From Candidatus Caldatribacteriota bacterium (lineage in GTDB: Bacteria > Atribacterota > Phoenicimicrobiia > Phoenicimicrobiales > Phoenicimicrobiaceae), in assembly GCA_034659055.1 (NCBI GenBank), contig JAYEGH010000091.1, positions 1 to 48,107 of the forward strand: a stretch of 48,107 bases of DNA, given 5' to 3'. Position numbers and translations under genes: made by a program. Shown one piece after another: positions 4,453 through 20,489 of the stretch. Within the stretch, counting starts at the first letter, position 1, and the number at the start of each line of letters is the position of its first letter. The notes under the pieces were generated by a model. That model worked only from the letters and a program-made list of their open reading frames with translations. It ran no database searches and was not told the DNA's origin.

Positions 4453-6755
4453 TTTTTTCTTCCCCCTTTACTTAAAGAATATCCCAATAAAACTCTTTCT
4501 AAATTAAGGGGTAAATGTCTAATTCTTTTTCCTGTTGCCTGAGCTACCGCATTTGCAATGGCTGCCGCCCCTATTTCAAGGGTGGGTTCACCAATGGATT
4601 TTGCACCAAAAGGTCCGTTTGGATCCGGATTTTCTACGATAATGGGATTGATTTCCGGCATATCTTTAATTGTAGGAATCAAATATTCGTCAAAATTAGC
4701 ATTTTTAATATAGCCTTTATCTGTTTCCAATTCCTCCATTAAACCATAACCCATCCCCATCATGACTCCTCCGTAAATCTGTCCCTTAAGGCAAGCAGGG
4801 TTAATGGCTCTGCCTACATCATGGGCTGCTGTCATCTTTAACAGATCTACCTTTCCGGTCCCTGTATCTACTTCCACTTCAGCGATTTGGCAGCCATAGA
4901 CATAGGTAAAATACGGTCTTCCCTGTCCGGTTTCTTCATTCCAAGAGATATCAGGGGCCTTATACCACCCGAAAGCGGAAAGGCATAATCCCTCCTGGTA
5001 AGCCAATGATACGGTTTCTTCAAAAGAGAGTAATTTTTTTTCTGTTTTTCTGTCAATAAGATAATCATCTTGAATTATAATATAATCTTTTCTCATCTTG
5101 TATTTCTTTGCCATCATCTCAAGGAGCATACTTTTTAATTTGACCACAGCCTCTTTAATCGCATTACCGCCTAAGATAGTGCCGCGGGAAGCTACTGTAG
5201 AACCGCTGTCAGGCGATATCGAGGTATCCAGTTCCTGATAAATTACCCTTTTCATATCCACACCCAACTCCTCGGCAGCAATTTGCGATAAAACGGTTTT
5301 TAAGCCCTGACCATTTTCTGCTAATCCGGAGCTGATTAATATGCTTCCATCCTTTTGAATAGCCACGATGGCTCCGGCTGCATCGACCGCTTCTGCACCC
5401 AAACTACAACCGCGAAAACTGATCGCCATACCGATTCCTCTTTTTATATCTCCGGGTTTTGATTTATTATTTTTATATAATTCGTATTTTTTATAATAAC
5501 CACTTTCTTTTGCCGCTTTTTCTATAACCTCTTCCAGGCTCACCTCGTGATTATCCAGTTTCTGGCCACTTGCCGTGATTGAATTATTATGATAAATATT
5601 TTTTAAACGAATCTCAGCAGGGTTCATATTTAATTCCCCAGCTAATTCATCCATTAAAGATTCCTGGGCAAAGATGGTCTGGGGAGTACCGTAACCCCTC
5701 ATTGCCCCTGTATATACATTATTGGTGTAATAACCGTAGGTATCTGTTTTTACATTAGATAAACTATATGGACCTGTAGCCTGGACGACCGAACGCCAGG
5801 TAACAAAAGGTGTCTGACAGGCATAAGCTCCACTATCGGCGATACACTGAATTTCCATACCTAATAATTTACCCTCCCTTGAAGCTCCAATCTTATATTT
5901 CATCTTATAAGGATGACGCTTATAGCTTTCCAAAATGGATTCATAGCGTGAATTAACCATTTTTATCGGCCTCTTGGTTTTTAAGGCCAAAACAGAAGCC
6001 CGAGCGGCCATGGCAGACATTACCTCATCCTTGCCACCAAATGAACCACCAATATGATTCTGAATAATTCTTACTTTGTTTAAACTTACCATTAGTACAC
6101 TTGCAACTGCGTTTTGACAGGAAAAAGGATTTTGTATCGAACCATAAATAGTAATCAAATGATTGTCATCATAAGGTACTGCTACGATAGCTTCAGGTTC
6201 AATATAGCTGTGCTCTATAAATTGAGTGGAATATTCTCTTTCCAGGATAATATCTGATTTGGTAAATCCATCATTCACATTACCTTTTCTTAATAAATGA
6301 TGAATGACTTGATTATCTTTTAATTCAGGATGAACTCGAAGCGCTTTTTCTTTCGAGGCCTCTTCCGGGTCATAAATTCCGGGCAGTTCTTTATAGTCAA
6401 CTTCAATCAGCTCCAATGCTCTTTCTGCAGCCTCTTCTGTCTCTGCAGCTACCACAGCAATTCCATCCCCGATATAATATACATATTCCTTAGCCAATAC
6501 TTGTTGATTTTGAATAATTACTCCAAATTCATTATTGGGAATATCAGTAGCAGTTAAAAGAGCTTTAACCTCCGGAAAAGTTAAAGCTCTTTTTATTTCT
6601 ATTTTATTAATTTTTGCATGAGGGTATCTACTGCGCAAAACTTTTGCATAAAGCATATCGGGGAAAGATAAATCAGCTGCAAATTTGGCTTTACCGGTTA
6701 CCTTTTCATAAGCATCCACCCGATTAACTGATTTATTTACTTGATGATATTTCAT
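4449..6755 (-). CDS. Xanthine dehydrogenase family, molybdopterin-binding large subunit
   Basis: Blocks GGSFGGK, AMRGYGTPQ and the C-terminal SIGEPT (catalytic Glu context). The ORF runs to 6773, but the ATG at 6755 has RBS AGGGAG 9 nt upstream and the 6773 ATG has none. Confidence 0.9.
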   Translation of the reverse strand: MKYHQVNKSVNRVDAYEKVTGKAKFAADLSFPDMLYAKVLRSRYPHAKINKIEIKRALTFPEVKALLTATDIPNNEFGVIIQNQQVLAKEYVYYIGDGIAVVAAETEEAAERALELIEVDYKELPGIYDPEEASKEKALRVHPELKDNQVIHHLLRKGNVNDGFTKSDIILEREYSTQFIEHSYIEPEAIVAVPYDDNHLITIYGSIQNPFSCQNAVASVLMVSLNKVRIIQNHIGGSFGGKDEVMSAMAARASVLALKTKRPIKMVNSRYESILESYKRHPYKMKYKIGASREGKLLGMEIQCIADSGAYACQTPFVTWRSVVQATGPYSLSNVKTDTYGYYTNNVYTGAMRGYGTPQTIFAQESLMDELAGELNMNPAEIRLKNIYHNNSITASGQKLDNHEVSLEEVIEKAAKESGYYKKYELYKNNKSKPGDIKRGIGMAISFRGCSLGAEAVDAAGAIVAIQKDGSILISSGLAENGQGLKTVLSQIAAEELGVDMKRVIYQELDTSISPDSGSTVASRGTILGGNAIKEAVVKLKSMLLEMMAKKYKMRKDYIIIQDDYLIDRKTEKKLLSFEETVSLAYQEGLCLSAFGWYKAPDISWNEETGQGRPYFTYVYGCQIAEVEVDTGTGKVDLLKMTAAHDVGRAINPACLKGQIYGGVMMGMGYGLMEELETDKGYIKNANFDEYLIPTIKDMPEINPIIVENPDPNGPFGAKSIGEPTLEIGAAAIANAVAQATGKRIRHLPLNLERVLLGYSLSKGGRKK

Positions 6756-6833
6756 TTTCTTTGTCTCCCTCATTATTATAAATCATTTTAGAATGTAAGG
6801 AAAAACTTTTTTTCTTAATATAGATATTTTAAC

Positions 6834-8300
6834 TTATTTTAACAATCTGGTTTTCTCGTTGAATTTTTTAATCAATTCATCTATCTTGCCGACTTGCCGA
6901 TGAATACCATTCCAATAATTATTATAATCATACCATTGGGCATTCAATTCTTCCAAATTTTTATTTTGCTGTTCAATCCAGGTAAAGTATTTAAGATTAT
7001 GAATTCTCTTTCTGTCATTATAGGTTAATTCCTGCATATAATCGGTGGACAGTGCTTTAAGATTGCGATGATAATCAATGGCTGCATCGGTTTCATCATA
7101 TGAACCGAATTTTTCTTCCAATTCTTTTAACCGGGAACCATACAGCTCCATGGAATCCGTAAAAACGGTTAAAACAATATCATCTTCGGTTAATTCATAA
7201 AATTTGGCAAATTTGATAGCCATAATCATATTGGCCACGCTGGAAATTCCCAAGAGGGGCAATTGTTTGATAATATCACGGGAAACACCTTTTTTATTTA
7301 GATATTTCTGTCCTATCGGTTCATTAAATAGTCGAATTAGTCCCATGGTATTGTTATCATCGACTGCGATGACCATATCGGTATTTCTCACATTATGAAT
7401 CCAGGGAACATGCTTATCTCCTATACCTTCTATTCTATGTGCACCAAAACCATTAGCCGTTAAAGTCGGACATTGCAAGGCTTCTCCGGCAACAATTTTG
7501 CTGGTGGGAAATTGTTCTTTCATGTAATCTCCACAACCCAGGGTTCCAGCAGAACCGGTGGTTAAAACCACACCGGCATACTTATCTTTACCCTTCATCT
7601 CTTTGGCCAGGACCTCTGTCATAGCCTTACCGGTAACCTCATAATGCCATAGATGATTGCCAAATTCATCAAACTGATTAAATACAACGACATTACCCCT
7701 GGTCTTTTTTAATTCCCAGGATTTATCAAAAATTTCTTTTACATTGCTCTCCGTTCCGGGAGTGGCAATAACTTCTCCGGCTACATTGGATAACCAGTCA
7801 AAACGTTCCCTACTCATCCCTTCCGGTAAAATGGCAATGGATTCACAGGAAAGCAGATCGGCATCATAGGCACCACCCCGACAGTAATTGCCCGTAGAAG
7901 GCCAGACTGCCTTTTGAGAGGTAGGGTCAAACTGGCCGGTAACCAGACGGGGAACCAGACATCCGAAAGTCGCTCCGACTTTATGGGCACCGGTTGGAAA
8001 CCATTTCCCGACCAAAGCGATTATTCTGGCATTTACGCCGGTAAGTTCCCGGGGTAATTCCACGTAATTAACTCCCCCAAATTGACCACCCATTTTGACC
8101 GGTTTATTTTTCCAGGTGATTCGAAAGAGATTATAAGAATTAATATCCCATAATCCAATATTTTTTAATTTATCTTTCACCTGTTGTGGTACAAGCTCAG
8201 GATTTTCCTGTTCAGCAAAAGTCGGGATAATTATATTTTTTTCCTTCGCCCTTCCCACTGTCATTTTCAGTTGTTCTTCATTGATAGTTAAATCAATCAT
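6834..8300 (-). CDS. Fold-type II PLP-dependent enzyme with a TrpB-like lysine motif; function unknown
   Basis: 488 aa. PTGAHKVG resembles the TrpB PLP-lysine block HTGAHK. Gly-rich TTGSAGTLGCG loop and a long helical C-terminal extension. ATGA start/stop overlap with the upstream M20 gene. Confidence 0.6.
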   Translation of the reverse strand: MIDLTINEEQLKMTVGRAKEKNIIIPTFAEQENPELVPQQVKDKLKNIGLWDINSYNLFRITWKNKPVKMGGQFGGVNYVELPRELTGVNARIIALVGKWFPTGAHKVGATFGCLVPRLVTGQFDPTSQKAVWPSTGNYCRGGAYDADLLSCESIAILPEGMSRERFDWLSNVAGEVIATPGTESNVKEIFDKSWELKKTRGNVVVFNQFDEFGNHLWHYEVTGKAMTEVLAKEMKGKDKYAGVVLTTGSAGTLGCGDYMKEQFPTSKIVAGEALQCPTLTANGFGAHRIEGIGDKHVPWIHNVRNTDMVIAVDDNNTMGLIRLFNEPIGQKYLNKKGVSRDIIKQLPLLGISSVANMIMAIKFAKFYELTEDDIVLTVFTDSMELYGSRLKELEEKFGSYDETDAAIDYHRNLKALSTDYMQELTYNDRKRIHNLKYFTWIEQQNKNLEELNAQWYDYNNYWNGIHRQVGKIDELIKKFNEKTRLLK

Positions 8301-9439
8301 TTTATTTTCTCCTTTGTTTTTAAAAATTCAATAAACGTATCTACTGATTGATAAAGGGATTTCAATTCGATATATTCATCATTTTGATGGGCCTGGGCGA
8401 TATCCCCGGGACCATAAATAGTAAAAGGTATTTTTTTCTCGGGAATAATCGTTGCTCCGTCAGTACAATATCTGGTAATAACTGCTTCATCCACACCGGC
8501 TGTCTTTATAAATTTTTGAATATAAGGATTTTTCGGGTCGGTAAAAATAGGATGTTTGTAATTAAAAACCTCTTCTTCAAATCGCACGTTATACTTTTCT
8601 GCAATATCTTCGCCAGTCTTCTTAATCAACTCTATTGCTTTTTCTTTATCTTCTTCTGAAATCACTCTAAAATCAAATTGTATTTCTGAATAATTTGGCA
8701 CAATATTTACCTGTACACCACCATGAAACTGTCCAATATTCATGGAAGTTTTACCCCAAAAATAATCGGTTTTAAATATTTTTTTATATTGCCCGGTTAC
8801 CTCCATAATTAGTTCACTCCCGGGGATAACACTGCTTACACCAACTTCAGGAGTAGAACCATGAGCAGATTTACCGTAAAACTTTGCACTTATCCATAAT
8901 TCTCCCTTTTCTCCGCAAGATACCTGTAGTGTTGAAGGTTCAGTGATAATTAAAAAATCTGTTTGGTTAAAATAACCTTTATTGGTTAAATCTTTTGCTC
9001 CTCTATATCCCCATTCTTCATCTGCGGTAAGCGCCAGCAAAATGGTTTTTTGAGGAATAATTCCTCTTCTTTTTAAAAGTATGGCAGCATATATCATGGC
9101 GGCTACTCCACCTTTCATATCAGATGTTCCCCTGCCATACATTCTGTCATTTTCAATCAATCCCTGAAATGGCGGTTTTTCCCAATATTCCTCTTTTACT
9201 CTAACGGTATCGAGATGACCGCAGAAAGCAATATTTCTTTCTTCTTTACCCGGTATTTTAGCAACCAGAGAGTCTCTTCCCTCTTCCAGTTGTACAATTT
9301 CAGAATCAATATCATTACTTGAAAGAAATTCTTTGATAAAATGTGCTATTTTACTTTCATTTCCCGGAGGATTTTCGCTATTTATTTGTATTAATTTTTG
9401 TAAAAATTCAACCAATTCTTCCTTTTCTTCTGCCTTCAC
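8297..9439 (-). CDS. M20 family metallo-amidohydrolase (ArgE/DapE/YgeY-like)
   Basis: 380 aa. Blocks CGHLDTV, GRGTSDMKGG, TADEEWG and ITEPS. GTG start overlaps the ThrC-like stop (GTGA). Confidence 0.8.
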   Translation of the reverse strand: MKAEEKEELVEFLQKLIQINSENPPGNESKIAHFIKEFLSSNDIDSEIVQLEEGRDSLVAKIPGKEERNIAFCGHLDTVRVKEEYWEKPPFQGLIENDRMYGRGTSDMKGGVAAMIYAAILLKRRGIIPQKTILLALTADEEWGYRGAKDLTNKGYFNQTDFLIITEPSTLQVSCGEKGELWISAKFYGKSAHGSTPEVGVSSVIPGSELIMEVTGQYKKIFKTDYFWGKTSMNIGQFHGGVQVNIVPNYSEIQFDFRVISEEDKEKAIELIKKTGEDIAEKYNVRFEEEVFNYKHPIFTDPKNPYIQKFIKTAGVDEAVITRYCTDGATIIPEKKIPFTIYGPGDIAQAHQNDEYIELKSLYQSVDTFIEFLKTKEKIK

Positions 9440-10665
9440 TCTAAATTCTCCTTTACTGCTTCTAAATTTGGATCTATGGTAAGTGCTTTTCCGCCTGCCT
9501 TTTTTGCGCTTTCTACATCTTTTAATCCATTTCCGGTAACTAATACAGCTATTTTATCTCTTTTAGAAATTTTTCCTTCCTGTAAACATTTTAGCATACC
9601 GGCAAAGGCGGTAGAACCTGCAGGTTCTGCAAAGATACCCTGTGCGGTACCCAAATATTTAATTGCCTTGATTATTTCTTCATCACTAACCGTAACACCA
9701 AATCCATCTAGTCCTTTTACATCTCTAACTGCCATTAAACGATTCCGGGGTATGCCCACTGAAATGCTGTCAGCGATAGTATCGGGTTCAACAAATTTTA
9801 CATTTCCGTCTCCGTTAATCGCATCTACAATCGGTTTGCATCCTTCCGCCTGAACCGCTATTACTTTGGGTAAGTGATCGATAAAACCCAGGGTTAACAT
9901 TTCTCTGTAAGCTTTAACTACTCCGGATATGATGCAACCATCTCCCACGGAAACAAATACAAAATCAGGAACCTCAAAATTCATTTGCTCAATAATTTCC
10001 AAACCAACAGTTTTTTTCCCTTCCACCATGTAAGGATTAAAGGCTGTGTTCCGGTTATACCATCCAAATTCCCTGGTTGCTTCGATAGACAAATCGAAGG
10101 CTTCATCATAGCTTCCCTTCACCGCAAAAACAGTGGAACCGAAAACCAGCAATTGAGCTATTTTAGCAATCGGTGCAGTTTGAGGAACAAAAATGTAACT
10201 CTTTAAACCTACCGAAGCAGCAGCTCCGGCCAGCGAAGAAGCGGCATTGCCCGTAGAAGCACAGGTTATAGTTTTTTCCCCTAATTCCCGAGCTTTTACA
10301 ATTGCAATGGCTGAAGGTCTGTCTTTTAGAGAAGCAGTTGGATTTCTACCGTCATCCTTGATCCACAAATTGGGTATTCCGAGATCTTCCCTAATTCTTT
10401 TTGCTTCATATAATGGTGTCCATCCTACCTTTAACGGACCTATCTTTTCCATATCATCTACAGGTAAAAGTGGCAAATATCTCCACATGGAGTACTCCCT
10501 GTTATCTTGCAAAGTTGTTTTAGTGAAATTTTTTCCGATACCGGAATAATCGTAAATAACTTCCAGGACGCCTTCATCTCCACATTTTGGACAGGTATAT
10601 CTTACCTCATCGGGTGGATATTCCGCCCCGCAGATCAAACATTTTAATTTTTTTATATTATTCAT
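9436..10665 (-). CDS. Threonine-synthase-family PLP enzyme with an N-terminal 4-Cys zinc ribbon
   Basis: Blocks CLICG...CPKCG, PLP-lysine NPTASLKDR, STGNAASS and VTGNGLKD. The ORF extends to a TTG at 10689, but the ATG at 10665 follows GGGAGG by 10 nt. Confidence 0.75.
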   Translation of the reverse strand: MNNIKKLKCLICGAEYPPDEVRYTCPKCGDEGVLEVIYDYSGIGKNFTKTTLQDNREYSMWRYLPLLPVDDMEKIGPLKVGWTPLYEAKRIREDLGIPNLWIKDDGRNPTASLKDRPSAIAIVKARELGEKTITCASTGNAASSLAGAAASVGLKSYIFVPQTAPIAKIAQLLVFGSTVFAVKGSYDEAFDLSIEATREFGWYNRNTAFNPYMVEGKKTVGLEIIEQMNFEVPDFVFVSVGDGCIISGVVKAYREMLTLGFIDHLPKVIAVQAEGCKPIVDAINGDGNVKFVEPDTIADSISVGIPRNRLMAVRDVKGLDGFGVTVSDEEIIKAIKYLGTAQGIFAEPAGSTAFAGMLKCLQEGKISKRDKIAVLVTGNGLKDVESAKKAGGKALTIDPNLEAVKENLE

Positions 10666-10765
10666 ATTTATATTTCCTCCCGGGCACAAATTATCTCCAA
10701 TCCTTTTGGAGTACTAATACGTTTAGTTTATATTAGCAAAGTATCAATAACGATTAATATTAAAG

Positions 10766-10900: not shown

Positions 10901-11851
10901 TTAGGGAAATATATGTGTTCCGGTTTCTCCTTTTAGTGCTCTTTCCAGGGATTCAGGATTTGTGACAATAGCTTCTTTTCCTCCTGCTTCCAGAAATCTT
11001 ACAATCGCCTGAATCTTGGGAAGCATGCTCCCTTTGGCAAAATGTCCTTCATTAATATATTTCTTTGCTTCTGCTACAGTTAGTTTATCCAAATCAATTT
11101 GATCCGATTTATTAAAGTTTAAACAAACTTTCTCTACTGCAGTAGAAATAACAAAAAGATCTGCTTTAATATTGATGGCCAGTAAACTTGAAGCATTATC
11201 TTTATCGATAACTGCAGCTACACCTTCGAGCATGCCATCATCATTGTAAGCTACCGGAATTCCTCCGCCTCCAACGCCGACCACGCTGAAACCATTTTTT
11301 ACCAAGGTATTGATTGCATCTTCTTCTACAATCTCTACCGGCATCGGAGAAGGAACTACTCTTCTATAGCCTCTGCCTACATCATCGATGATAACCCAAT
11401 CGGGATGTTCTTTCTGTAGTTCTTCTGCTCTTTCTTTGGAATAAAAAGTACCAATCGGTTTTGCAGGATTCTGAAATGCAGGGTCTTTTTTATCTACGAC
11501 AACCTGGGTCACAACCGTAGCAATTTGTTTCTTAATCCCCCGTTTTTTAAACTCATTGTCCATTGCCTGCTGAATTTGATATCCGATAGAACCCTGGGTA
11601 TCTGCTCCGCAACTCACCAAAGGAACATCATGCATCCCTCCGACTTCATGGGCAATTTCCGAACGTCTTAAAATAAATCCCACCTGCGGACCGTTGCCAT
11701 GAGTTACTACTACACTATAATTCTGTTCTATTAGACTGGCAATGTGTTTGGCTGTTTCACATACTGCATTATACTGGTCTTCTACAGTCTCATGCTTTTT
11801 GTCCTTAATAAGGGAATTTCCCCCAATAGCCAATACTGCTAATTTACTCAT
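10901..11851 (-). CDS. arcC: Carbamate kinase
   Basis: 316 aa. Blocks LAIGGNSL and VVTHGNGPQVG, with carbamate-kinase length and layout. Starts 3 nt after the upstream carbamoyltransferase stop. Confidence 0.9.
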   Translation of the reverse strand: MSKLAVLAIGGNSLIKDKKHETVEDQYNAVCETAKHIASLIEQNYSVVVTHGNGPQVGFILRRSEIAHEVGGMHDVPLVSCGADTQGSIGYQIQQAMDNEFKKRGIKKQIATVVTQVVVDKKDPAFQNPAKPIGTFYSKERAEELQKEHPDWVIIDDVGRGYRRVVPSPMPVEIVEEDAINTLVKNGFSVVGVGGGGIPVAYNDDGMLEGVAAVIDKDNASSLLAINIKADLFVISTAVEKVCLNFNKSDQIDLDKLTVAEAKKYINEGHFAKGSMLPKIQAIVRFLEAGGKEAIVTNPESLERALKGETGTHIFP

Positions 11852-11854
11852 TTT

Positions 11855-12865
11855 CTATCTCCATCCTTCCGCCATAGTTAAGGCCATTATAGCTTTTTGG
11901 GCATGTAATCTGTTTTCCGCGAGATCATAAACAATGGAACGGGAACCACTTGCCACTTCATCATCGACTTCATTTCCGCGATCAATAGGCATGGGATGAA
12001 TATAATAAGCATCATCTGTAAGGGCAGCAAGTTCTTTTGTATATCTCCAATCCTTATATTTTAAGGCAATTTTCTTTTCTTCTTCCTTGCCTATAGTATA
12101 TCTTAACGGACTCATCCAATTTCTGGCATATACGACTTGTGCACCTTTTACCGCTTCATGCCTATCATGGCTGATTTCAAATTTTGATCCGGAAATTTCG
12201 GCATTCTTTTTACCCTGGGCAATAACTTCGGGATCCAATTCGAAGCCTTCCGGATGAACCAGAGTAAAGTCCATCCCATAACGAGGAAGTAGAAAAATAT
12301 CTTCCTGCACAGAACTCCAGGAACGCACCATTGAAGAATAACCCCACATCATGGTTATTTTTTTACCCTTTACGTCTCCCATATGTTCCTGAAGACCCAT
12401 TAAGTCAGCAAGCCCCTGGCAGGGATGATATTTATCATGAGCCATGGATACAAGAGGGATGGATAAATATTTAGCATATTCTCTAAGCAATTCTTCTCCC
12501 TGTCCATATTCTCTTATGGCATCTTCCAATAGTCTGATCCCTAATCCTACAGCATATCTGCTCATAACATTTGCTGCATCCTCAACTGTCTCTCCTGCTT
12601 TCCCCTTCTCTTTTAATCTCATAGATTTGGGTTCAAGGAATTGAGCATGACCACCCAATTCTGTAGCTGCTGCTTCAAATGATTGCCTGGTTCTAACCGA
12701 AGGATTATAGAAAAACATTAAAAAAGTTTTATCTTTAAGAATTTCGGTATAAGGTTTTTCGTAACGGTGTTTTTTCATATCTTTTGCGAGGGCCAACACT
12801 TCATCAAGCCACTCTTTTTCCCAATCCTGGGTAGTAATCATATGTTTTTTATAAAGTTTTGTCAT
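11855..12865 (-). CDS. Non-canonical carbamoyltransferase (Asp/Orn transcarbamylase fold; CT1)
   Basis: 336 aa. Has SVRTR and HPCQ carbamoyl-phosphate motifs and an ATCase-like HPMPIDRGNEV block. The second-substrate region reads YARNW and lacks the OTC DxxxSMG motif. RBS AGGAGGAAATAA-ATG. Confidence 0.8.
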   Translation of the reverse strand: MTKLYKKHMITTQDWEKEWLDEVLALAKDMKKHRYEKPYTEILKDKTFLMFFYNPSVRTRQSFEAAATELGGHAQFLEPKSMRLKEKGKAGETVEDAANVMSRYAVGLGIRLLEDAIREYGQGEELLREYAKYLSIPLVSMAHDKYHPCQGLADLMGLQEHMGDVKGKKITMMWGYSSMVRSWSSVQEDIFLLPRYGMDFTLVHPEGFELDPEVIAQGKKNAEISGSKFEISHDRHEAVKGAQVVYARNWMSPLRYTIGKEEEKKIALKYKDWRYTKELAALTDDAYYIHPMPIDRGNEVDDEVASGSRSIVYDLAENRLHAQKAIMALTMAEGWR

Positions 12866-12893
12866 TTATTTCCTCCTATTTACTTAGTGAATG

Positions 12894-12921
12894 GTAATTC
12901 GTATCGCGTATTGCGTGAAAA
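12894..12921. repeat. Four tandem heptads (GTAATTC GTATCGC GTATTGC GTGAAAA)
   Basis: Read directly from the sequence. Lies 29-56 nt upstream of the CT1 start codon. Confidence 0.5.
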
Positions 12922-12950
12922 AATTAGGATTAAAACTTTCTTGCGCCTGT

Positions 12951-12989
12951 CATTCCCATGAAACCTGTCCTCGACCTGATCGGGGAATG
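12951..12989. repeat. Inverted repeat CATTCCC...GGGAATG with a 25-nt spacer
   Basis: 7-bp arms at 12951-12957 and 12983-12989, in the 210-bp gap between the cyclic amidohydrolase and CT1. Confidence 0.55.
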
Positions 12990-13028
12990 GGAATCTATCT
13001 TATCCTTTTTAATTCTTCTAACTTCGTT

Positions 13029-13046
13029 GGGCACGATGCGTCGTGC
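13029..13046. repeat. Small GC hairpin GCACGA-TGCG-TCGTGC, preceded by GG
   Basis: Perfect 6-bp stem with a tetraloop. The 11-mer GGGCACGATGC (13029-13039) recurs inverted at 34891-34901. Confidence 0.55.
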
Positions 13047-13075
13047 TCATACAAGGCATTACTATATTTTATTTT

Positions 13076-14455
13076 TTAAATCCCTGACTTATTCTTGACA
13101 AAATGTCCGTATCCCCTTTTGCCGACAACTCCCTCGTCTTCTCTATAAACCATCTCTCCACGGATAATAGTCATATAAATTTTTCCTTTTAGTATCTTAC
13201 CGGAAAAGGGGGAATACTTTCCTTTACTTTCCAATCTTGATGATTCCACTAACCATTCTTTATTAAGGTTTATAACCGAAAAGTCTGCATCGCTGCCTAC
13301 TCGAATTATTCCTTTTTGAGGATAAATTCCATATCTTTTCGCAGCATTTTCTGACATCAGTTTCTGAATCTCGCCCAAATTTAATCTTCCTTTATGATAT
13401 CCGTAATTAAGTATGGCCGAAACAGCTAATTGTGTACCGGGAATACCAGCATAATTTTTCCAGATATTCGAAAAAGACTTCTCTTCGGGATATTTTCCGG
13501 CAGCATGATCAGTGCAAATAAAATTAATAGAACCGTCTTTCAATCCTTCCCAAAGTCCTTCATTATCCTCTTTTTTCCGTAAAGATGGTGCAACTTTTAA
13601 TATTGCTCCCATTTTTTTAAAATCTTCAACTGTAAAAAGTAAATAGTGAGGACATGTTTCAGTGCTTATATCCATCCCATCAGCTTTTGCCCGACGAATA
13701 ATATTTAATCCTTCTCTTGTAGAAAGATGTACGATATGCAGTTTATTACCCGCTTTTCTGGTAACGCCTACTACAGACCATATTGCTTTTGGTTCTGCTT
13801 CGTATGTCCGCCCTTCACACCAGCTTTCTACATCAGTTCTTCCTTGCATCTTTATAAGATTAGAATAATAATCAACTAAAAAGTAATCCTCTGCATGCAC
13901 TGCACACACCAAGTTTAACTTTTTAAGGAATTTGAAAGCTTTATCCATTTCTGAAACCGGCATCCTGGGATAAAATTCCATTCCGGATACAGTATAAAAC
14001 TTTACTCCAACAATCCCTCTTTCTTTTAGCTCTTCTAAAGTCTTTTTATACTCTCCTGATTTTACCTGTTCAGGGGTAACTCCTCCCCAAAAAGCAAAAT
14101 CAACATATGCTTTTTCTTTTACTATATTTAATTTGCAATCAAAATTCTTACCACTGGTAACCATAGGAATAGAAGTGCAGGGCATATCAATAATTGTAGT
14201 AATACCACCAGCCGCTGCACTTCTGGTTCCGGTTTCAAAATCCTCTCTTTGAGTATATCCGGGGTCATCAAAATGAACATGAGGGTCAATAAAACCCGGA
14301 AAAACCACATTCTTCTTTATATCAATTTCTCTTTCTGCAGGAAGTAATATTTCATCTCCGGGTACAATTTTATTTATCTTACCCTTTTTAATGTCAATAC
14401 TTACTTTTTTTAATTGATTATCTACTAAAATTAAAGCATTTTTAATCCTTATCAT
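13076..14455 (-). CDS. Cyclic amidohydrolase (allantoinase/dihydroorotase/hydantoinase family)
   Basis: 459 aa. Blocks FIDPHVHFDDPG...ETGTRSAAAGGITTIIDMP, VGVKFY (carboxylated-Lys context), VHAED, HIVHLST, TCPHYL and CTDHA. The C-terminal half resembles E. coli AllB as I recall it. Confidence 0.8.
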   Translation of the reverse strand: MIRIKNALILVDNQLKKVSIDIKKGKINKIVPGDEILLPAEREIDIKKNVVFPGFIDPHVHFDDPGYTQREDFETGTRSAAAGGITTIIDMPCTSIPMVTSGKNFDCKLNIVKEKAYVDFAFWGGVTPEQVKSGEYKKTLEELKERGIVGVKFYTVSGMEFYPRMPVSEMDKAFKFLKKLNLVCAVHAEDYFLVDYYSNLIKMQGRTDVESWCEGRTYEAEPKAIWSVVGVTRKAGNKLHIVHLSTREGLNIIRRAKADGMDISTETCPHYLLFTVEDFKKMGAILKVAPSLRKKEDNEGLWEGLKDGSINFICTDHAAGKYPEEKSFSNIWKNYAGIPGTQLAVSAILNYGYHKGRLNLGEIQKLMSENAAKRYGIYPQKGIIRVGSDADFSVINLNKEWLVESSRLESKGKYSPFSGKILKGKIYMTIIRGEMVYREDEGVVGKRGYGHFVKNKSGI

Positions 14456-14492
14456 TTTTCTCCTTTTACTTCCTGTCAGATTTACAGGACCT

Positions 14493-15536
14493 TTATCTCA
14501 TCAGAAGAGTCATTATTGCCTTTTGAGCATGCAGTCTGTTCTCAGCTTCATCAAAGACCACCGAATTCGGACCATCAATTACCGAATCGGTTACTTCATA
14601 CCCTCTATCACAAGGCAGGCAATGCATATAAATTGCTTCCGGTTTAGCTAATTTTAATTTTCGGTCATCACATATCCAATCCTTATTTTTATCAAATAGG
14701 GCTTTCATCTTCTCTACATTTATTTCAGAAGTTTGCGGCGGAACACAGGTTAAGCTACCCCATGATTTAGGATATAACACATCTGCATCTTTAAAAGAAT
14801 CTTCCATAGAATCGGTTTCTTCAAATGAGCCACCGTATTTTTTAGAATTTTCTTTGATGGCATCAATCATCATGGGATCCAGTTGGAAACCCTCCGGACG
14901 GGCTAAAGTAATATTCATACCAAACTTACTGGCTGTTGACATTAAACACTGTGGAACTGCCACTGGTTTTTCCACACTTGGTGAATAAGCCCAGCTTACT
15001 ACCAATTTTTTATTACGTAAGTCACCCAATTTTTCTTTCATGGTGAGGACATCAGCCATCGACTGACAAGGGTGATATATATCGTCTTCCATATTAATTA
15101 CTGGGATATCTGCCCATTTAGCAAATTCGCGCAGATATTTATTACCATTACCATATTTCCAACCGGTCGGTTTTCCATACATTCTTATAGCAATACCATC
15201 GCCCATTCTAGCCAATACGCGAGCAACATCAGATACTCTTTCTGTAGAGTAGGCTCTCTCTTCACCTTCAGTAGCAGGAGTATATATCTTTTCTGAATCC
15301 AGATAATTGGCATGTCCGCCTAACTGAGTCATTCCAGTTTCAAAGCTGTTACGGGTTCGTAAAGATTTATTGTAAAAGATAATAAATAAAGTTTTACGGA
15401 GAAGCAGTGAGTGCTCCCGACCAGATGCATTGTCAGCCTTTAAAACAGCAGCTAACTCCAGCATACTTTCTAATTCGTCCTTGGTAAATTCCAGTGTACT
15501 TATAAAGTCACGACCTTTTAATGATTTTGTTTTCAT
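14493..15536 (-). CDS. YgeW-like non-canonical carbamoyltransferase (CT2)
   Basis: 347 aa. Has SLRTR, HPCQ and HCLP motifs. The blocks SWAYSPSVEKPVAVPQ and GGSFEETDSMEDSFKDADVLYPKSW mirror E. coli YgeW (WAYSPSYGKPLSVPQ; GGSF..TSMEEAFKDADIVYPKSW, from memory). RBS AGGAGGAATCAAA-ATG. Confidence 0.8.
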   Translation of the reverse strand: MKTKSLKGRDFISTLEFTKDELESMLELAAVLKADNASGREHSLLLRKTLFIIFYNKSLRTRNSFETGMTQLGGHANYLDSEKIYTPATEGEERAYSTERVSDVARVLARMGDGIAIRMYGKPTGWKYGNGNKYLREFAKWADIPVINMEDDIYHPCQSMADVLTMKEKLGDLRNKKLVVSWAYSPSVEKPVAVPQCLMSTASKFGMNITLARPEGFQLDPMMIDAIKENSKKYGGSFEETDSMEDSFKDADVLYPKSWGSLTCVPPQTSEINVEKMKALFDKNKDWICDDRKLKLAKPEAIYMHCLPCDRGYEVTDSVIDGPNSVVFDEAENRLHAQKAIMTLLMR

Positions 15537-15608
15537 TTTGATTCCTCCTAATAAATAATTTTTATGTTTTAGAAACTCGTTCTACGAATACTTTTACTTT
15601 TCGATTTA

Positions 15609-15617
15609 CCCTCCTTT
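15609..15617 (-). promoter_or_regulatory. Start-codon-less Shine-Dalgarno-like motif AAAGGAGGG in the CT2 leader
   Basis: Lies 74 nt upstream of the ATG at 15536. No ATG/GTG/TTG within 15 nt downstream. A TATAAT box (15629-15634, minus sense) sits 12 nt upstream, so the motif would be near the mRNA 5' end. Confidence 0.35.
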
Positions 15618-15844: not shown

Positions 15845-16768
15845 TTAAGAACGCTCCTTGATATAAGGTTTGCCTAAAAAGGCCGGAACATTAAATTTCC
15901 TTCTAGCAATGGTTGCTACAATTGTCAGAATATAGGGAAGAGCAATTAAGAATTCATTCGGAATCAGCTTAAAATTAGAAGTCAGCAAAACAACGGACAA
16001 TCCTTCGGCAAATCCAAAAATCAGAGAACCAATTAATATTCCCAGCGGATCCCAATTACCTAAAAAACAGATTGCAAAAGCAATCCATCCTCTTCCTCCA
16101 ATAATATCATTAGTATAAAGTCCTAAAAATCCTATAGAGTAGAAGGCTCCTGCTAAGCCATCCAATGCACTCGACCCAAGCACGGCAAGGAAGCGAATGC
16201 GTTCCACATTAATCCCGGCTACATCCACTGCTTCTGGATTTTCACCTGTAGAACGAATAATTAATCCTAAAGGTGTTTTAAATAAAATCCAATATCCTAC
16301 AGCAATCAGTACGACTGCCAGATAAGTCAAACTATTCTGACTAAAGAGAGCTCTTCCAATAATAGGAATATCAGATAAAAAAGGAATTGAAATATCCTTT
16401 AAAGGTTCTACGGTTAATGGTAAAAGAGGAATTCCAAATAACATTTGATAAAGAAACAATCCTAAACCCAAGGTAAGGATATTTATCGCTACTCCAGTTA
16501 CAATTTGATGTTGTTTTAATTTAATTGTGAAATAACCATAGATTGCACCACAAAAGATCCCTACCAGTATGGCAAATAAAAAACCAACCCATAGTTTTCC
16601 GGTCAAATAAGCTCCAACAAAACCTCCCCATGCACCCATAAGAAAGATTCCTTCAATAGCTATATTCATCACGCCAGTCCGCTCAGCAAATACTTCCCCT
16701 AATGCACCAAGCATCAAAGGTGTACTCATACGAATGGTAGCAACAAATAATCCAGTAATAATATTCAT
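15845..16768 (-). CDS. ABC transporter permease (BMP/nucleoside-type system)
   Basis: 307 aa, polytopic and hydrophobic. Overlaps the upstream permease gene by 4 nt, in an operon with a BMP-family binding protein. Confidence 0.85.
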   Translation of the reverse strand: MNIITGLFVATIRMSTPLMLGALGEVFAERTGVMNIAIEGIFLMGAWGGFVGAYLTGKLWVGFLFAILVGIFCGAIYGYFTIKLKQHQIVTGVAINILTLGLGLFLYQMLFGIPLLPLTVEPLKDISIPFLSDIPIIGRALFSQNSLTYLAVVLIAVGYWILFKTPLGLIIRSTGENPEAVDVAGINVERIRFLAVLGSSALDGLAGAFYSIGFLGLYTNDIIGGRGWIAFAICFLGNWDPLGILIGSLIFGFAEGLSVVLLTSNFKLIPNEFLIALPYILTIVATIARRKFNVPAFLGKPYIKERS

Positions 16769-17889
16769 AATCTATGTTCCTCTTGCTCCACAAGTTTTTT
16801 CTTGCTTCTTAAAACTATTAATTTATCTCTTATAAAATAAGATAAAATCACTGACAATATAACAAAACCCTCCATAATACCAATAATGCTAGCGGGAATT
16901 CTTGAGGTTTGAACAACTAGATTTCCGCCTACTTTTAAGGCTCCAAACAAAAGGGCAGAAATTACTATACCTAAAGGATGTGCATTTCCCAATATGGCAA
17001 TTCCTATTCCTTCAGCCCCAATCATGGGGTTAAATCCTTCAATTAACATGTGCTGCATTCCATTTATTTCTGTAAAACCTGCAATTCCGGCAAATGCCCC
17101 ACTTATAAAAAACACAATAATATAGATTTTTTCGACATTTACCCCTGCATAACGGGCTGCATCTCGATTAAATCCAACCATTCTAATTTTATATCCCAGC
17201 GATGTCTTCCATAAAATTAAATAAGCTACCAAAGCAACAAGCAAAGCAAATATAAAACCCCAATGAAGTCTCGTGTGCGGAATAAGGGATGGTAACCACC
17301 CGCTTTCCGGGATAACATCTGTCTGCGGATATTCCCCTTTGGCTTCTTTTAATAAACCTCCAAGTAGAAAATTCATCACAGCAATGGCAACATAAGTTAA
17401 CATCATGCTAACTAAAAATTCACTGGCATTAAAACGTGCTTTTACATAACCAATAAAAGCTGCCCATATACTGCCTCCCAGCAAACTCATTGTAAAACAT
17501 ATGAATAGTGCAAGCACCATGGGAAACGAACCTAATTTTAATGCAAATCCAACCGCTAATACCGCACCAATATAAAACTGCCCCTGAGCGCCAATATTGA
17601 ATAATGATGCTCGAAAAGCAAACCCAAAAGCCAATCCGGTAAGAATAAGGGGAGTCGCCTTGGCAAATATATCTGCAATATTGTATATATCGCGAAATGC
17701 GTAATTTAACATATTTGAATAAACAATTAATGGATTATGATCTAAAAGCATCATCATTATACTGCTCAACAACAGGCCAAGCAATACTGAAAATATAGGT
17801 AAAAGATTAAGTAGAATATTATTATCCTGCACTTTTACGGATAATTCGCTTTTTACAGTAATGTCTTTATTTCTATTATTTTTTTTCAT
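16765..17889 (-). CDS. ABC transporter permease (BMP/nucleoside-type system)
   Basis: 374 aa, polytopic. Overlaps the ATPase gene end by 14 nt. Confidence 0.85.
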   Translation of the reverse strand: MKKNNRNKDITVKSELSVKVQDNNILLNLLPIFSVLLGLLLSSIMMMLLDHNPLIVYSNMLNYAFRDIYNIADIFAKATPLILTGLAFGFAFRASLFNIGAQGQFYIGAVLAVGFALKLGSFPMVLALFICFTMSLLGGSIWAAFIGYVKARFNASEFLVSMMLTYVAIAVMNFLLGGLLKEAKGEYPQTDVIPESGWLPSLIPHTRLHWGFIFALLVALVAYLILWKTSLGYKIRMVGFNRDAARYAGVNVEKIYIIVFFISGAFAGIAGFTEINGMQHMLIEGFNPMIGAEGIGIAILGNAHPLGIVISALLFGALKVGGNLVVQTSRIPASIIGIMEGFVILSVILSYFIRDKLIVLRSKKKLVEQEEHRL

Positions 17890-19420
17890 TTCCCTGTCTC
17901 TCGGTAATTCCTGCCATTAAAAGTCCAATCTCATCGACATTTGCATCTTCTCTTAATATTATCTTGAGCAATTTTCCTCTATACATAACTCCTATCCGGT
18001 CTGATAAAATCATAATTTCCGATAATTCTGTTGAAATTAACAGAATGGCCTTACCTTCTTTTTTTTCTCTTAGTAAGGTTTTATGAACATAATCAATAGC
18101 ACCCAGGTCAAGACCGCGGGTAGGTTGTACAGCGACCAGTACTTTGGAACCGATATTTACTTCCCTTGCAACCGCAACTTTTTGCTGGTTCCCCCCTGAC
18201 AAAGTCATTGCCTTGCTAGTTGAGGAGGTTGCTTTGATTTCAAAATTTTTCATTAATGTTTTTGCATTTTGTTGAATTTTATTCTGATTCAAAAAGCCAT
18301 ATTTTATAAATGAGGAGTCAGAATGATTTTTAAGAAACAGATTTTCCTCAATGGACATATCCAAAACCAATCCCTCTTTATGGCGATCAGCCGGTATATA
18401 ACCTACACCCTGTTGAATAATGGATAAAGCATTTTTATTAGTGATTTCCTTGTCGGATAAAAGAAGATGACCACTCTTTGATTTCCGTAAGCCACATATT
18501 GTCTGGGCAAGTTCTTCCTGGCCATTACCGCTTACTCCGGCAATACCAAATATTTCTCCTTCCTTGACATCAAATGATAAGTCATCAACCATCTTGCTTT
18601 TTTTATCTCCAATAATGGTTAGATTTTTTATTTTAAGCACTTCTTTATTATTACTATTAAAAGTCGTAGCATTTCTTTTAGCTATCATCAAATCCCGCCC
18701 GATCATCATTTTCGTCAACTGACTCTCTGTTGCTTCATGGCGGGAAACATTCCCTACAACTTTACCGTCTCTTAATACGGTAATCCTATCGGCAATTTCC
18801 ATAACCTCATTTAACTTATGACTGATAAAGATAACCGAATGGCCTTTAGCTTTAAAATCATGTATGAAACGAAATAATTTCTCAGTCTCCTGAGAAGTAA
18901 GGACTGAAGTCGGCTCATCCATGATAAGAATTTCTGCATTTCGGTAAAGAGCCTTGATTATTTCCACCCGCTGTTGCATGCCAACCGGAAGTTGCCTGAT
19001 AAAGGCAAAAGGGTCAACCTCAAGTCCATACTTTTTGCCAATTTCTTCGATTTTTTTCACTCTTTTTCCAATATTTATATTATTCAAATAAGCAGATTCT
19101 GTTCCCAGAATAATGTTTTCTACTACTGTATGAACGGGAACCAGGGTAAAATGTTGATGAATCATACCTACACCGTACTTCATAGCATCATGAGGGGAGC
19201 GAATTCTCACCCGTTTTCCCTTGATGTATATTTCACCTTCATCCGGTTGATATAATCCGTAAAGTATACTCATTAAGGTTGTTTTACCAGCACCGTTTTC
19301 TCCAAAAAGAGCTAATACTTCTCCTCTTGCCAAAGTAAAATTAATGTGATCATTGGCAATTGTTCCCGGAAAATATTTAGTAATATTTTTTAAAGTAATA
19401 AAATCAGAATTATCTTTCAT
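17876..19420 (-). CDS. ABC transporter ATP-binding protein with duplicated ATPase domains
   Basis: Walker A GENGAGKTT, signatures LPVGMQQRV and LSGGNQQKV, Walker B ILIMDEPT. The ORF extends to 19489 but would then include the terminator hairpin. The ATG at 19420 (MKDNSDFITLKNITKYF) is the likely start. Confidence 0.9.
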   Translation of the reverse strand: MKDNSDFITLKNITKYFPGTIANDHINFTLARGEVLALFGENGAGKTTLMSILYGLYQPDEGEIYIKGKRVRIRSPHDAMKYGVGMIHQHFTLVPVHTVVENIILGTESAYLNNINIGKRVKKIEEIGKKYGLEVDPFAFIRQLPVGMQQRVEIIKALYRNAEILIMDEPTSVLTSQETEKLFRFIHDFKAKGHSVIFISHKLNEVMEIADRITVLRDGKVVGNVSRHEATESQLTKMMIGRDLMIAKRNATTFNSNNKEVLKIKNLTIIGDKKSKMVDDLSFDVKEGEIFGIAGVSGNGQEELAQTICGLRKSKSGHLLLSDKEITNKNALSIIQQGVGYIPADRHKEGLVLDMSIEENLFLKNHSDSSFIKYGFLNQNKIQQNAKTLMKNFEIKATSSTSKAMTLSGGNQQKVAVAREVNIGSKVLVAVQPTRGLDLGAIDYVHKTLLREKKEGKAILLISTELSEIMILSDRIGVMYRGKLLKIILREDANVDEIGLLMAGITERQGNEKK

Positions 19421-19433
19421 GTTTTCTTCTTCC

Positions 19434-19480
19434 AAAAAAAAGAGGGGGGATTGAAGAGTTTTTAAAAACCCTTCAATCCC
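19434..19480 (-). terminator. Hairpin plus U8 tract directly after the BMP binding-protein gene (attenuator/terminator)
   Basis: GGGATTGAAG (19447-19456) pairs with CTTCAATCCC (19471-19480). The loop holds the palindrome GTTTTTAAAAAC. In minus sense it is followed by CCCCTCTTTTTTTT. Confidence 0.6.
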
Positions 19481-19496
19481 TACTATCAATATTGTT

Positions 19497-20489
19497 TTAT
19501 TCCAAAGATTCGGGAAATTGAGATATAAATTTCAATAATTTCCCTTCTGCAATTAATTCTGAAGCTTGTTCAACCATTTCACGAACTTCCGGGGAAACCT
19601 CATCAGTAAAGGACATGCTAATAACCCCTTCTTTCATGCCTAATTCATTAACGACAGGTTTTAATTCACCGTTCATGTACTTTGTTGCAATCCATTTATA
19701 GATATCTTCTGTTCCAAACCATGCGCTTGCCACGACAGTACCCGGAGCAATATCATTCTGGTCACTTGCAAAACCTAAAAATTTAGCGCCTTGCTCTTTA
19801 CAGGATTGAATAGCACCAAGACCAACCTGGTTCGCATAGAAGAAAAGCACATCTGCGCCCTTGTCAATCATGGAAGAGGCCATTTGCTTGCCTAAAGCCA
19901 CATCGCTCCATGAATTTGCATAAGCCCTGATTACTTCAACATCTGGAGAGCCAATTCTTGCACCATATTCATAGGTATTTAGAAGTCTGATCATCAGTTT
20001 GTTGGGAAAGCCACCAGAAATACCGATTTTGCCTGTTTTGGTGGTATACCCAGCAATTATACCGGCTAAAAAGCTTGCTTCATATTCCTTGGGTAATACC
20101 GGGCAAACATTTGGAGGATTAGCAATCATTCCATTGAATACACAATAAGTAGTCTTCGGATATTTTGGCCCAACTCTATTGGCAGCTTCATCAAACTGCG
20201 TTCCCGCAGAAATAACTAAATCATATCCTCGTTCACCGTAATTTCGAAAAGTAGATTCATAATCACTTGCCTGGACATTTTCCACATATTCCATATTAGT
20301 TCCAAGTGTATTATTACACGCCAATAAGCCGGCATAGTTAGCTGCGTTCCAGCTTTGGTCATTAATAGGACCAGGGAGAATTAATACCATTTTATAACTT
20401 CCCGCATCTTTTGCGATTCCGGAAGTTATACATAAACTTAATACCAATAAAACTAATAATACTTTAATCAGTAAATTCGAATTTTTCAT
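19497..20489 (-). CDS. BMP-family (PnrA/Med-like) substrate-binding protein of ABC importer
   Basis: 330 aa with an N-terminal signal peptide (LVLLVLSLCITSG). Layout is typical of basic-membrane-protein purine-nucleoside binders. First gene of the ABC operon. Confidence 0.85.
   Translation of the reverse strand: MKNSNLLIKVLLVLLVLSLCITSGIAKDAGSYKMVLILPGPINDQSWNAANYAGLLACNNTLGTNMEYVENVQASDYESTFRNYGERGYDLVISAGTQFDEAANRVGPKYPKTTYCVFNGMIANPPNVCPVLPKEYEASFLAGIIAGYTTKTGKIGISGGFPNKLMIRLLNTYEYGARIGSPDVEVIRAYANSWSDVALGKQMASSMIDKGADVLFFYANQVGLGAIQSCKEQGAKFLGFASDQNDIAPGTVVASAWFGTEDIYKWIATKYMNGELKPVVNELGMKEGVISMSFTDEVSPEVREMVEQASELIAEGKLLKFISQFPESLE

Follow-up and report, generated by a model that had tools for sequence, protein, structure and literature searches.

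Two paralogous transcarbamylases of the N-acetylornithine transcarbamylase/YgeW-like group in an Atribacterota purine cluster, and their possible role in recovering ATP from both ureido groups of a diureido acid

The anaerobic pathway of urate degradation was worked out only in 2025. In this reductive route urate is converted to 2,8-dioxopurine, YgfK dearomatises the ring system, and SsnA and HyuA open the rings to give 2,3-diureidopropionate; YgeW then phosphorolyses one ureido group, and YqeA makes ATP from the carbamoyl phosphate; the second ureido group is hydrolysed off by YgeY, and the resulting diaminopropionate yields pyruvate through YgeX (10.1101/2025.04.24.650524; PMC12507026; PMC12990295). 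YgeW together with YqeA generates ATP from 2,3-diureidopropanoate in vitro (10.1101/2025.04.24.650524). The first ureido cleavage can be phosphorolytic or hydrolytic, and the published variants accordingly yield one ATP (YgeW with YgeY) or none (UacY with YgeY). The literature we searched describes no variant with two transcarbamylases. In this paper we analyse a 48,107-bp stretch of DNA, the entire contig JAYEGH010000091.1 of a Candidatus Caldatribacteriota (Atribacterota) metagenome-assembled genome, which we call the window. Its first 21 kb hold a purine-catabolic cluster with two transcarbamylase genes, CT1 and CT2, a cyclic amidohydrolase and one carbamate kinase (CK). Of the readings we considered, we lean with some confidence towards a fully phosphorolytic variant of the pathway, in which both ureido groups of 2,3-diureidopropionate would be turned into carbamoyl phosphate and then into ATP.

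The intact proteins CT1 and CT2 share 38% identity over 341 residues (E = 8e-78), so that chance is excluded and the paralogy claimed for them in an earlier note on this DNA (the original prediction) is real. The motifs it had listed, SLRTR or SVRTR, HPCQ, HCLP and HPMPIDRGNEV, were all found in the translations. In full, translation and alignment give SLRTR, R118, HPCQ, HCLPCDRGYEV, YPKSW, R334 and INME for CT2, and SVRTR, R111, MAHDKYHPCQ, HPMPIDRGNEV, YARNW and R319 for CT1, in which R181 and S182 are invariant. At the HxLP position CT1 thus reads HPMP, with Met for Leu and Pro for Cys. Both proteins carry the signature of the transcarbamylase superfamily, namely SxRT(R), HPxQ, an HxLP-type motif, the beta4 arginine and the C-terminal arginine, and both keep all the motifs that bind carbamoyl phosphate; their homologues are annotated with the Pfam families PF02729 and PF00185. 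The shared block Y(P/A)(K/R)(S/N)W had been likened to the YPKSW of YgeW, and we do find YPKSW in E. coli K-12 YgeW. The Y-x-K-S-W block is also present, as YAKSW, in the N-acetylornithine transcarbamylase (AOTCase) of X. campestris.

None of the named families accommodates either protein. The DxxxSMG motif of ornithine transcarbamylases (OTCases) and the aspartate transcarbamylase (ATCase) motif RxQxER are absent, as predicted, and RNWMSPL in CT1 and KSWGSLT in CT2 stand in the place of DxxxSMG. With the OTCase model TIGR00658 (cut-off 281) CT1 and CT2 reach 211 and 242, and with the ATCase model TIGR00670 (cut-off 237) 110 and 104, at 22-25% identity to PyrB. The best NCBIfam match for both is the AOTCase model NF003384, which gives 247 bits for CT1 and a borderline 283 for CT2 (cut-off 288). 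The YgeW models TIGR03316 (cut-off 500) and NF005538 (cut-off 453) give 128 and 141 for CT1 and 176 and 192 for CT2, and the YgeW N-terminal extension, 240s-loop insertions and C-terminal tail are all missing. The putrescine transcarbamylase (PTCase) model TIGR04384 scores 203 and 228 against a cut-off of 500. Ureidoglycine transcarbamylases (UGTCases) have H(T/S)LP rather than HPMP or HCLP, and the nearest relatives of CT1 and CT2 are AOTCase and OTCase, not PyrB. Nor is there the arginine cluster expected of an AOTCase or N-succinylornithine transcarbamylase, since argB, argC and argH homologues were found neither in the window nor, within 10 kb, in any of about 95 related loci. The description of the pair as non-canonical therefore holds against every curated cut-off (OTCase, ATCase, AOTCase, PTCase and YgeW). 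With their motifs complete and all named-family cut-offs failed, CT1 and CT2 appear to be competent transcarbamylases of an AOTCase/YgeW-like group that belong to none of the named families.

CT1 and CT2 also differ from each other in their specificity loops. By sequence the nearest solved structures are X. campestris AOTCase and P. furiosus OTCase, with YgeW (3q98) a weaker match. AlphaFold2 models of CT1 (pLDDT 86) and CT2 (pLDDT 89) best match the AOTCase structures 3kzk (TM 0.84) and 3kzm (TM 0.85-0.88) respectively, and are poor over residues 54-90, that is, the SxRTR segment and the 80s loop. The residues that define AOTCase, Glu92, Asn185 and Lys302 in X. campestris numbering (PMC4581275), are not kept, being Gly, Ser and Glu in CT1 and Thr, Pro and Glu in CT2. 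For YgeW the putative second-substrate residues are K270, S200, K203 and Q160 (PMC4581275). CT2 has K257, S187, K190 and Glu150 at these positions, the last replacing Gln, while CT1 has R248, Met179, R181 and Ala142; this Ala corresponds to Glu in AOTCase and CT2 and to Gln in YgeW. The Pro-rich loops of CT2 (WAYSPSVEKPVAVPQ) and YgeW (WAYSPSYGKPLSVPQ) are near-identical and include the Ser and Lys proposed as substrate binders of YgeW. CT2 also shares the YPK lysine of YgeW, whereas CT1 has Arg at both basic positions. Both proteins have the extended 120s loop and the loop insertion known from the 'knotted' group, the loop being Pro-rich in CT2 and without proline in CT1, and in both a basic residue opens the 240s loop (K252 in AOTCase, K270 in YgeW). 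The HPMP of CT1, in place of HCLP, recalls the HPLP of ATCase. In total, none of the four specificity loops is alike in CT1 and CT2, and the pattern of each protein is kept to at least 90% across phyla.

Metagenomic homologues of CT1 and CT2 are abundant, with 60-67% identity across phyla, and are mostly labelled in databases as 'ornithine' or 'N-acetylornithine carbamoyltransferase'. When one genome per species was scanned, 451 genomes proved to encode a relative of CT1. The 80 best CT1 loci represent Atribacterota, Caldisericota, Elusimicrobiota, Neomarinimicrobiota, Anaerolineae, Deltaproteobacteria, Cloacimonadota, Thorarchaeota and others. We clustered 171 aligned transcarbamylases (164 from 88 related loci, the two window proteins and five references) and obtained three subfamilies, CT1 with 83 sequences, CT2 with 48 and CT3 with 26. 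CT3 is 46% identical to CT2, and each subfamily is 33-38% identical to YgeW or AOTCase. The partner of CT1 is CT2 in 38 loci and CT3 in 25.

The pairing seen in the window is not accidental. Among the 46 CT1 loci with at least 3 kb on either side, for which we counted features within 10 kb, 41 have a partner transcarbamylase and 44 a CK; in two further loci the partner had been hidden by the calling of open reading frames. CT1-type genes therefore nearly always adjoin a transcarbamylase of another clade and a CK, which supports the original prediction. Fold-type-II pyridoxal phosphate (PLP) enzymes are also common neighbours: a ThrC-like enzyme is found in 33 of these loci, the 488-residue protein that we call PALP488 in 19, and one or both in 38. 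No YgeW or YgeX orthologue occurs in any of the 46. In Caldisericia the module consists of four genes only, CT2, PALP488, CK and CT1. Apparent fusions of CT2 with CT1 and of CT2 with an M20 gene, each seen in one locus, turned out to be artefacts of open reading frame calling in another reading frame.

In two other lineages the module sits inside a reductive urate cluster. Six Neomarinimicrobiota loci carry YgfK, 35-48% identical to the E. coli protein, and most of them also SsnA and subunits of a xanthine dehydrogenase (XDH). In most of these loci a CT2-CT1-CK-PALP488-ThrC block occupies the place of ygeW, ygeY and ygeX, of which no orthologue was found in the six; a HyuA-like gene was detected in one of them, L079. 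In all, a dearomatising reductase lies beside the same transcarbamylase pair in seven loci (L041, L047, L054, L061, L079, L082 and L098). On the 945-kb contig L098 the genes run in the order HyuA, XDH, a split reductase resembling dihydropyrimidine dehydrogenase, SsnA, PALP, CT2, CT1, CK, ThrC-like, XDH FeS subunit and xanthine/uracil permease, with no M20 gene. A Caldisericales locus combines SsnA, adenine deaminase, an allantoinase-like hydrolase, CT3, CT1, CK, a Bmp ABC transporter and a ThrC-like gene. The adenine deaminase of this locus (L042, 4885-6648; PF13382) lies between SsnA and the allantoinase-like hydrolase, and its position supports a purine-feeding role of that cluster.

The genes of the window itself are listed in Table 1. 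Every gene of the cluster region lies on the minus strand, and the cluster runs up to the contig end, 184 non-coding nt past ssnA. The short spacings behind CT2 and CT1 that the original prediction had noted were confirmed from the open reading frames, and a gap of 210 nt separates the hydrolase from CT1. The overlaps of the ThrC-like, M20 and PALP488 genes at both junctions suggest translational coupling. SsnA scores 595 with NF005540 against an equivalog cut-off of 444 and is 33% identical to E. coli SsnA, the deaminase-type amidohydrolase scores 615 with the 8-oxoguanine deaminase model NF006055 (cut-off 532), and the CK scores 462 with NF009007 (cut-off 266) and is 48% identical to E. coli YqeA. 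The window therefore contains three of the marks of a reductive urate cluster, SsnA, a three-subunit XDH-family molybdoenzyme and a CK adjoining a transcarbamylase, and lacks orthologues of HyuA, YgeW, YgeY and YgeX. With the deaminase and the Bmp transporter, these genes support the earlier view of a catabolic, purine-linked operon that feeds one CK. Three intergenic gaps are 210-211 nt long (1517-1727, 10690-10900 and 12866-13075), and a shared regulatory element in them was rejected because their alignment showed no similarity (mean column identity 42%). Rfam at gathering thresholds gave no match anywhere in the window. Promoter and terminator scans gave counts no higher than in shuffled sequence, so that the operon boundaries are based on spacing.

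Table 1. Genes of the purine-catabolic cluster in the window, in order from the head of the cluster to the contig end
Gene product	Position	Strand	Remarks
XRE-HTH and cupin regulator	20686..21237	-	head of cluster
Bmp/PnrA-type (nucleoside-type) ABC transporter	15845..20489	-	binding protein, ATPase, two permeases; upstream of CT2
CT2 transcarbamylase	14493..15536	-	347 aa; CT2 subfamily; assigned by motifs, profile scores, AlphaFold2 model
Cyclic amidohydrolase, allantoinase/dihydroorotase type	13076..14455	-	459 aa; 37 nt after CT2; assigned by profile score
CT1 transcarbamylase	11855..12865	-	336 aa; CT1 subfamily; assigned by motifs, profile scores, AlphaFold2 model
Carbamate kinase (CK)	10901..11851	-	3 nt after CT1; assigned by profile score
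ThrC-like fold-type-II PLP enzyme	9436..10689	-	threonine-synthase-like, N-terminal Cys4 ribbon
M20 ArgE/DapE-type deacylase	8297..9439	-	4-nt overlap with both flanking genes
PALP488	6834..8300	-	488-aa fold-type-II PLP enzyme, distantly cysteine-synthase-like
Three-subunit XDH-family molybdoenzyme	3120..6773	-	Mo 4449-6773, FAD 3574-4452, 2Fe-2S 3120-3581
Amidohydrolase, purine deaminase type	1728..3095	-	passes 8-oxoguanine deaminase model
SsnA	185..1516	-	last gene before contig end; passes SsnA model

Within Atribacterota the cluster varies in its transcarbamylases. The nearest relatives of the window (L013, L032 and L091) have the order hydrolase, CT3, CT1, CK and then a Bmp ABC transporter. 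The window has no CT3; its CT2 precedes the hydrolase and is itself preceded by another Bmp transporter (26-50% identical). The partner transcarbamylase has been swapped within the phylum. Further variants with other transcarbamylases are found in L093/L094 (4927-12496) and L012 (2225-8313). One of these enzymes, which we call CTx, is a fourth, YgeW-like type of 327 aa with the NLQCD motif of YgeW and 43% identity to CT2. Another, present in L093, L094 and L012, is a 317-aa pseudo-ATCase with HSLP and no RxQxER, 36% identical to PyrB and similar to the UGTCase group. L012 combines three transcarbamylases in a single cluster. In every Atribacterota variant seen, transcarbamylases from different clades occur together, at least two of them, which fits two regiospecific steps. 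The XRE-cupin regulator also precedes the hydrolase in L093 and L087. Just upstream of this regulator in L093/L094 (1525-2363) are two short open reading frames with matches to the arginine deiminase/dimethylarginine dimethylaminohydrolase (ADI/DDAH) family, which look like fragments of a deiminase gene.

From these comparisons we infer which substrates are used, in what order and direction the reactions run and how much ATP they yield. Purines would enter through the Bmp-type ABC transporter and be funnelled by the deaminase-type amidohydrolase and the XDH-family enzyme. The hydrolase, which presumably opens a 5-substituted hydantoin ring, would release a diureido acid, most likely 2,3-diureidopropionate. 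CT2 (or CT3) would then act like YgeW and phosphorolyse one ureido group, probably the 3-ureido group, and CT1 would phosphorolyse the remaining one, replacing the hydrolase YgeY of known clusters. This regiochemistry is suggested by sequence features. A role of CT2 on the 3-ureido group is reasonable given its likeness to YgeW and AOTCase (an omega-ureido acid with an acylated alpha-nitrogen), and a role of CT1 on the 2-ureido group is reasonable given its ATCase-like HPxP and two invariant arginines. CK would turn both carbamoyl phosphates into ATP, up to two per purine, and the ThrC-like enzyme, PALP488 or both would deaminate 2,3-diaminopropionate to pyruvate in place of YgeX.

The two PLP enzymes are candidates for this last step. 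The ThrC-like protein, which is conserved beside the CT1/CK module, passes one 'threonine synthase' model and is also the sole YgeX match in the window, over a local stretch of 133 residues with 26% identity. PALP488 scores 93 bits with the CysK model (cut-off 351). Its orthologues are 58-64% identical in Caldisericia and Neomarinimicrobiota modules, and it is more than 80% conserved over more than 100 Atribacterota protein clusters; judged by its sequence, it appears to be a PLP subfamily without prior characterisation. We would tentatively go one step further and regard CT1, CT2 or CT3, CK and one or two new PLP lyases as a self-contained module from diureido acid to pyruvate and two ATP. 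Such a module might be spread over Atribacterota, Caldisericota, Neomarinimicrobiota, Elusimicrobiota, Anaerolineae and Thorarchaeota, all uncultured anaerobes, but both extensions are less secure than the double phosphorolysis itself.

The original prediction had suggested that both ureido units of a purine ring are harvested for up to two ATP, and on comparative genomics this is the best available explanation. The replacement of ygeW, ygeY and ygeX by the pair in other lineages supports it, while the M20 gene and the missing reductase in the window do not. Its further suggestion that the acceptors may be new probably does not hold in full, since 2,3-diureidopropionate and its mono-ureido product, the likeliest acceptors, were described in 2025; the novelty lies in the enzymes. 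Several observations weigh against the double phosphorolysis. No dearomatising reductase (YgfK, UacX or an F420 enzyme) is found in the 48 kb of the window, and a YgfK/UacX-type reductase is likewise absent from the visible sequence of every Atribacterota relative seen. The operon encodes an M20 deacylase that could hydrolyse one ureido group, and two PLP enzymes where one would do. True YgeY homologues lie beside the pair in about eight loci, so that three ureido-cleaving enzymes can coexist for two ureido groups. A purine gene lies within 10 kb in only 10 of the 46 well-flanked modules, and some modules sit among housekeeping genes. In addition, CT2 may not have a single substrate across its subfamily, as one homologue lies beside DDAH/ADI-like genes. 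From the M20 gene of the Atribacterota operon and the YgeY homologues elsewhere, it seems that a hydrolytic step may coexist with two phosphorolytic ones.

CT2 homologues are indeed found in other surroundings. Loci L004-L006 of Thermacetogeniaceae (about 7800-20400) lack CT1 but encode a CT2 orthologue with 73% identity, clustered with pyruvate kinase (divergent), an enolase-like gene, CK, a MOFRL glycerate kinase, a ferredoxin reductase or dihydroorotate dehydrogenase (DHODH)-like gene, a HyuA-like hydantoinase (40%) and GrdB-like genes. This cluster may encode another way of gaining ATP from ring reduction, with a C3 hydroxy acid as the end product. In the Bacillota metagenome-assembled genome L097 (1-6600), a 61%-identical CT2 homologue and an OTCase/PTCase-like transcarbamylase are each followed by a DDAH/ADI-family gene, and the region also encodes an amino-acid permease and a CK; it looks like a double deiminase route for guanidino compounds. 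These two contexts suggest that the CT2 subfamily may accept several omega-ureido acids.

How far do other explanations account for the cluster? If the hydrolase were a true allantoinase, the transcarbamylases could phosphorolyse allantoate, which is diureidoacetate, and a later ureido compound (ureidoglycine or oxalurate), with CK making ATP. The hydrolase does pass the allantoinase model TIGR03178 (394, cut-off 358) and is slightly nearer to E. coli AllB (32% identity) than to HyuA (29%; HyuA model TIGR02033 263, cut-off 393), but with the curated allantoinase models PRK06189 and PRK08044 its scores fall well short of the cut-offs. There are also precedents: the Rubrobacter UGTCase, encoded beside an allantoinase and a CK, phosphorolyses allantoate in vitro (PMC4016543), some Atribacterota variants have the UGTCase-like HSLP transcarbamylase, and allantoin was reported from the sediments studied by Bird et al. 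2019 (PMC6469976). However, no uricase, allA, allC, allD, allE, allFGH, gcl or glxK was found in the window or in any related locus, the cluster contains SsnA, the marker of the reductive route, and the same pair accompanies YgfK, SsnA and HyuA in other lineages. The C2 products of allantoate would moreover leave the conserved fold-type-II PLP enzymes without a role, and we consider allantoin catabolism unlikely. A similar objection applies to the xanthinase (Rabinowitz) pathway, which we considered for its ureido compound 4-ureido-5-imidazolecarboxylate and set aside, since it ends in glycine and offers no obvious role for two PLP enzymes.

About as unlikely, perhaps a little more so, is a conventional division of labour for one ATP per purine, with one transcarbamylase YgeW-like, the M20 enzyme YgeY-like on the second ureido group, and the other transcarbamylase serving a different substrate, such as a deiminated guanidino compound or N-carbamoyl-beta-alanine derived from pyrimidines. 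This view would fit the position of the M20 gene, which lies between the two PLP genes and is apparently coupled to them in translation, as well as the YgeY-like genes beside the pair and the CT2 homologues without CT1, next to a DHODH-like reductase and hydantoinase or to DDAH/ADI-like genes. On the other hand the M20 protein of the window is not a YgeY orthologue (26% identity; YgeY model 196, cut-off 321 bits), any M20 gene is found in only 12 of the 46 well-flanked modules, whereas the other 34 have none and yet retain both transcarbamylases, and an M20 gene is also missing from the complete clusters L079 and L098. That CT1 almost always adjoins a partner argues for a joint task. Least probable of all, and to our minds very improbable, is an anabolic or supply role, in which CK would work towards carbamoyl phosphate or the module would be the main source of it in the cell. 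CT1 and CT2 would then be divergent biosynthetic enzymes, ATCase-like and acyl-ornithine-like, and the ThrC-like and CysK-like genes ordinary amino-acid synthases. CT2 lies just below the AOTCase cut-off and keeps the equivalents of E144 and K252, CT1 has the ATCase-like HPxP, the ThrC-like protein passes its threonine synthase model, and Atribacteria single amplified genomes are reported to lack carAB (PMC6469976). Modules of Cryosericum and Anaerolineae lie among housekeeping or glycosyltransferase genes, neighbours that are uninformative on the substrate. But the AOTCase residues are lost, as are RxQxER and DxxxSMG, the 10-kb surroundings of each module contain no homologue of argB, argC, argH, carA, carB or pyrI, canonical OTCase genes sit beside the module in Elusimicrobia loci, and in the window, L079 and L098 the pair is embedded in catabolic purine genes.

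Phosphorolysis of both ureido groups would, if it takes place, double the ATP derived from carbamoyl phosphate relative to the E. coli-type pathway, and deep-subsurface organisms that scavenge nucleobases could draw much of their energy from it as a main route. Energy yield matters most for energy-starved subsurface bacteria, and Atribacterota are among the most abundant cells of marine sediments. Our results also delimit two or more subfamilies of transcarbamylases whose specificity loops are distinctive and conserved. One published survey demanded at least 63% identity to YgeW, and genes of the CT1 and CT2 type would be missed at this threshold. Two regiospecific enzymes could furthermore help to settle which ureido group is attacked by YgeW-type enzymes, a question that is still open (PMC12990295).

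The closest known system is the reductive urate set of E. coli and C. sporogenes, which consists of XdhD/YgfM, YgfK, SsnA, HyuA, YgeW with YqeA, YgeY and YgeX (10.1101/2025.04.24.650524; PMC12507026; PMC12990295). The window shares with it an XDH-family enzyme, SsnA, a ring-opening hydrolase, a transcarbamylase with CK and a fold-type-II PLP enzyme, as well as the logic of passing a ureido group through carbamoyl phosphate to ATP, and related loci also have YgfK and HyuA. It differs in having no YgeW, YgeY or YgeX orthologue and no reductase, a hydrolase of the allantoinase rather than the HyuA type, two different PLP enzymes, and two transcarbamylases that share only 34-36% identity with YgeW and fall short of its length by about 50 residues. 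The X. campestris AOTCase (3kzc/3kzk), a knotted transcarbamylase, is the best match of CT1 and CT2 in sequence and structure, with a similar extended 120s loop, Pro-rich-loop insertion and basic residue in Y-A/P-K/R-S/N-W. Identity to it is 34-37%, however, the 80s-loop insertion with Trp77 is absent, and the CT1 and CT2 genes adjoin a CK and have no arginine-biosynthesis context.

Catabolic transcarbamylases in purine clusters with a CK have been described before as pseudo-ATCases, such as the Rubrobacter UGTCase with its allantoinase and CK (PMC4016543). In Nocardioides JS614 a pseudo-ATCase adjoins a ygeW homologue, xdhABC and hyuA (Barba et al. 2013, PMC4016543); this case is a precedent for neighbouring genes of two different transcarbamylases close to XDH and a hydantoinase. 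The Atribacterota variants L093 and L012 carry a pseudo-ATCase of this HSLP type, whereas CT1 and CT2 lie off the ATCase branch, with HPMP and HCLP in place of H(T/S)LP, and the window has no uricase route. The arginine and agmatine deiminase pathways likewise conserve energy by phosphorolysis of a ureido compound followed by CK, but they use one transcarbamylase with canonical OTCase or PTCase motifs, and their ureido compound comes from a deiminase and not from ring opening. Bird et al. 2019 reported an Atribacteria allantoinase-carbamoyltransferase operon from Baltic Sea sediments, next to a purine-binding ABC transporter and transcribed in sediments with allantoin, and read it as allantoin catabolism and a possible sole source of carbamoyl phosphate (PMC6469976). 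The cluster of the window is very probably the same kind of operon. That study predates the reductive pathway, and its accessible part mentions neither SsnA nor two non-canonical transcarbamylases (PMC6469976). The comparison made here reopens its interpretation of that operon as a route of allantoin catabolism.

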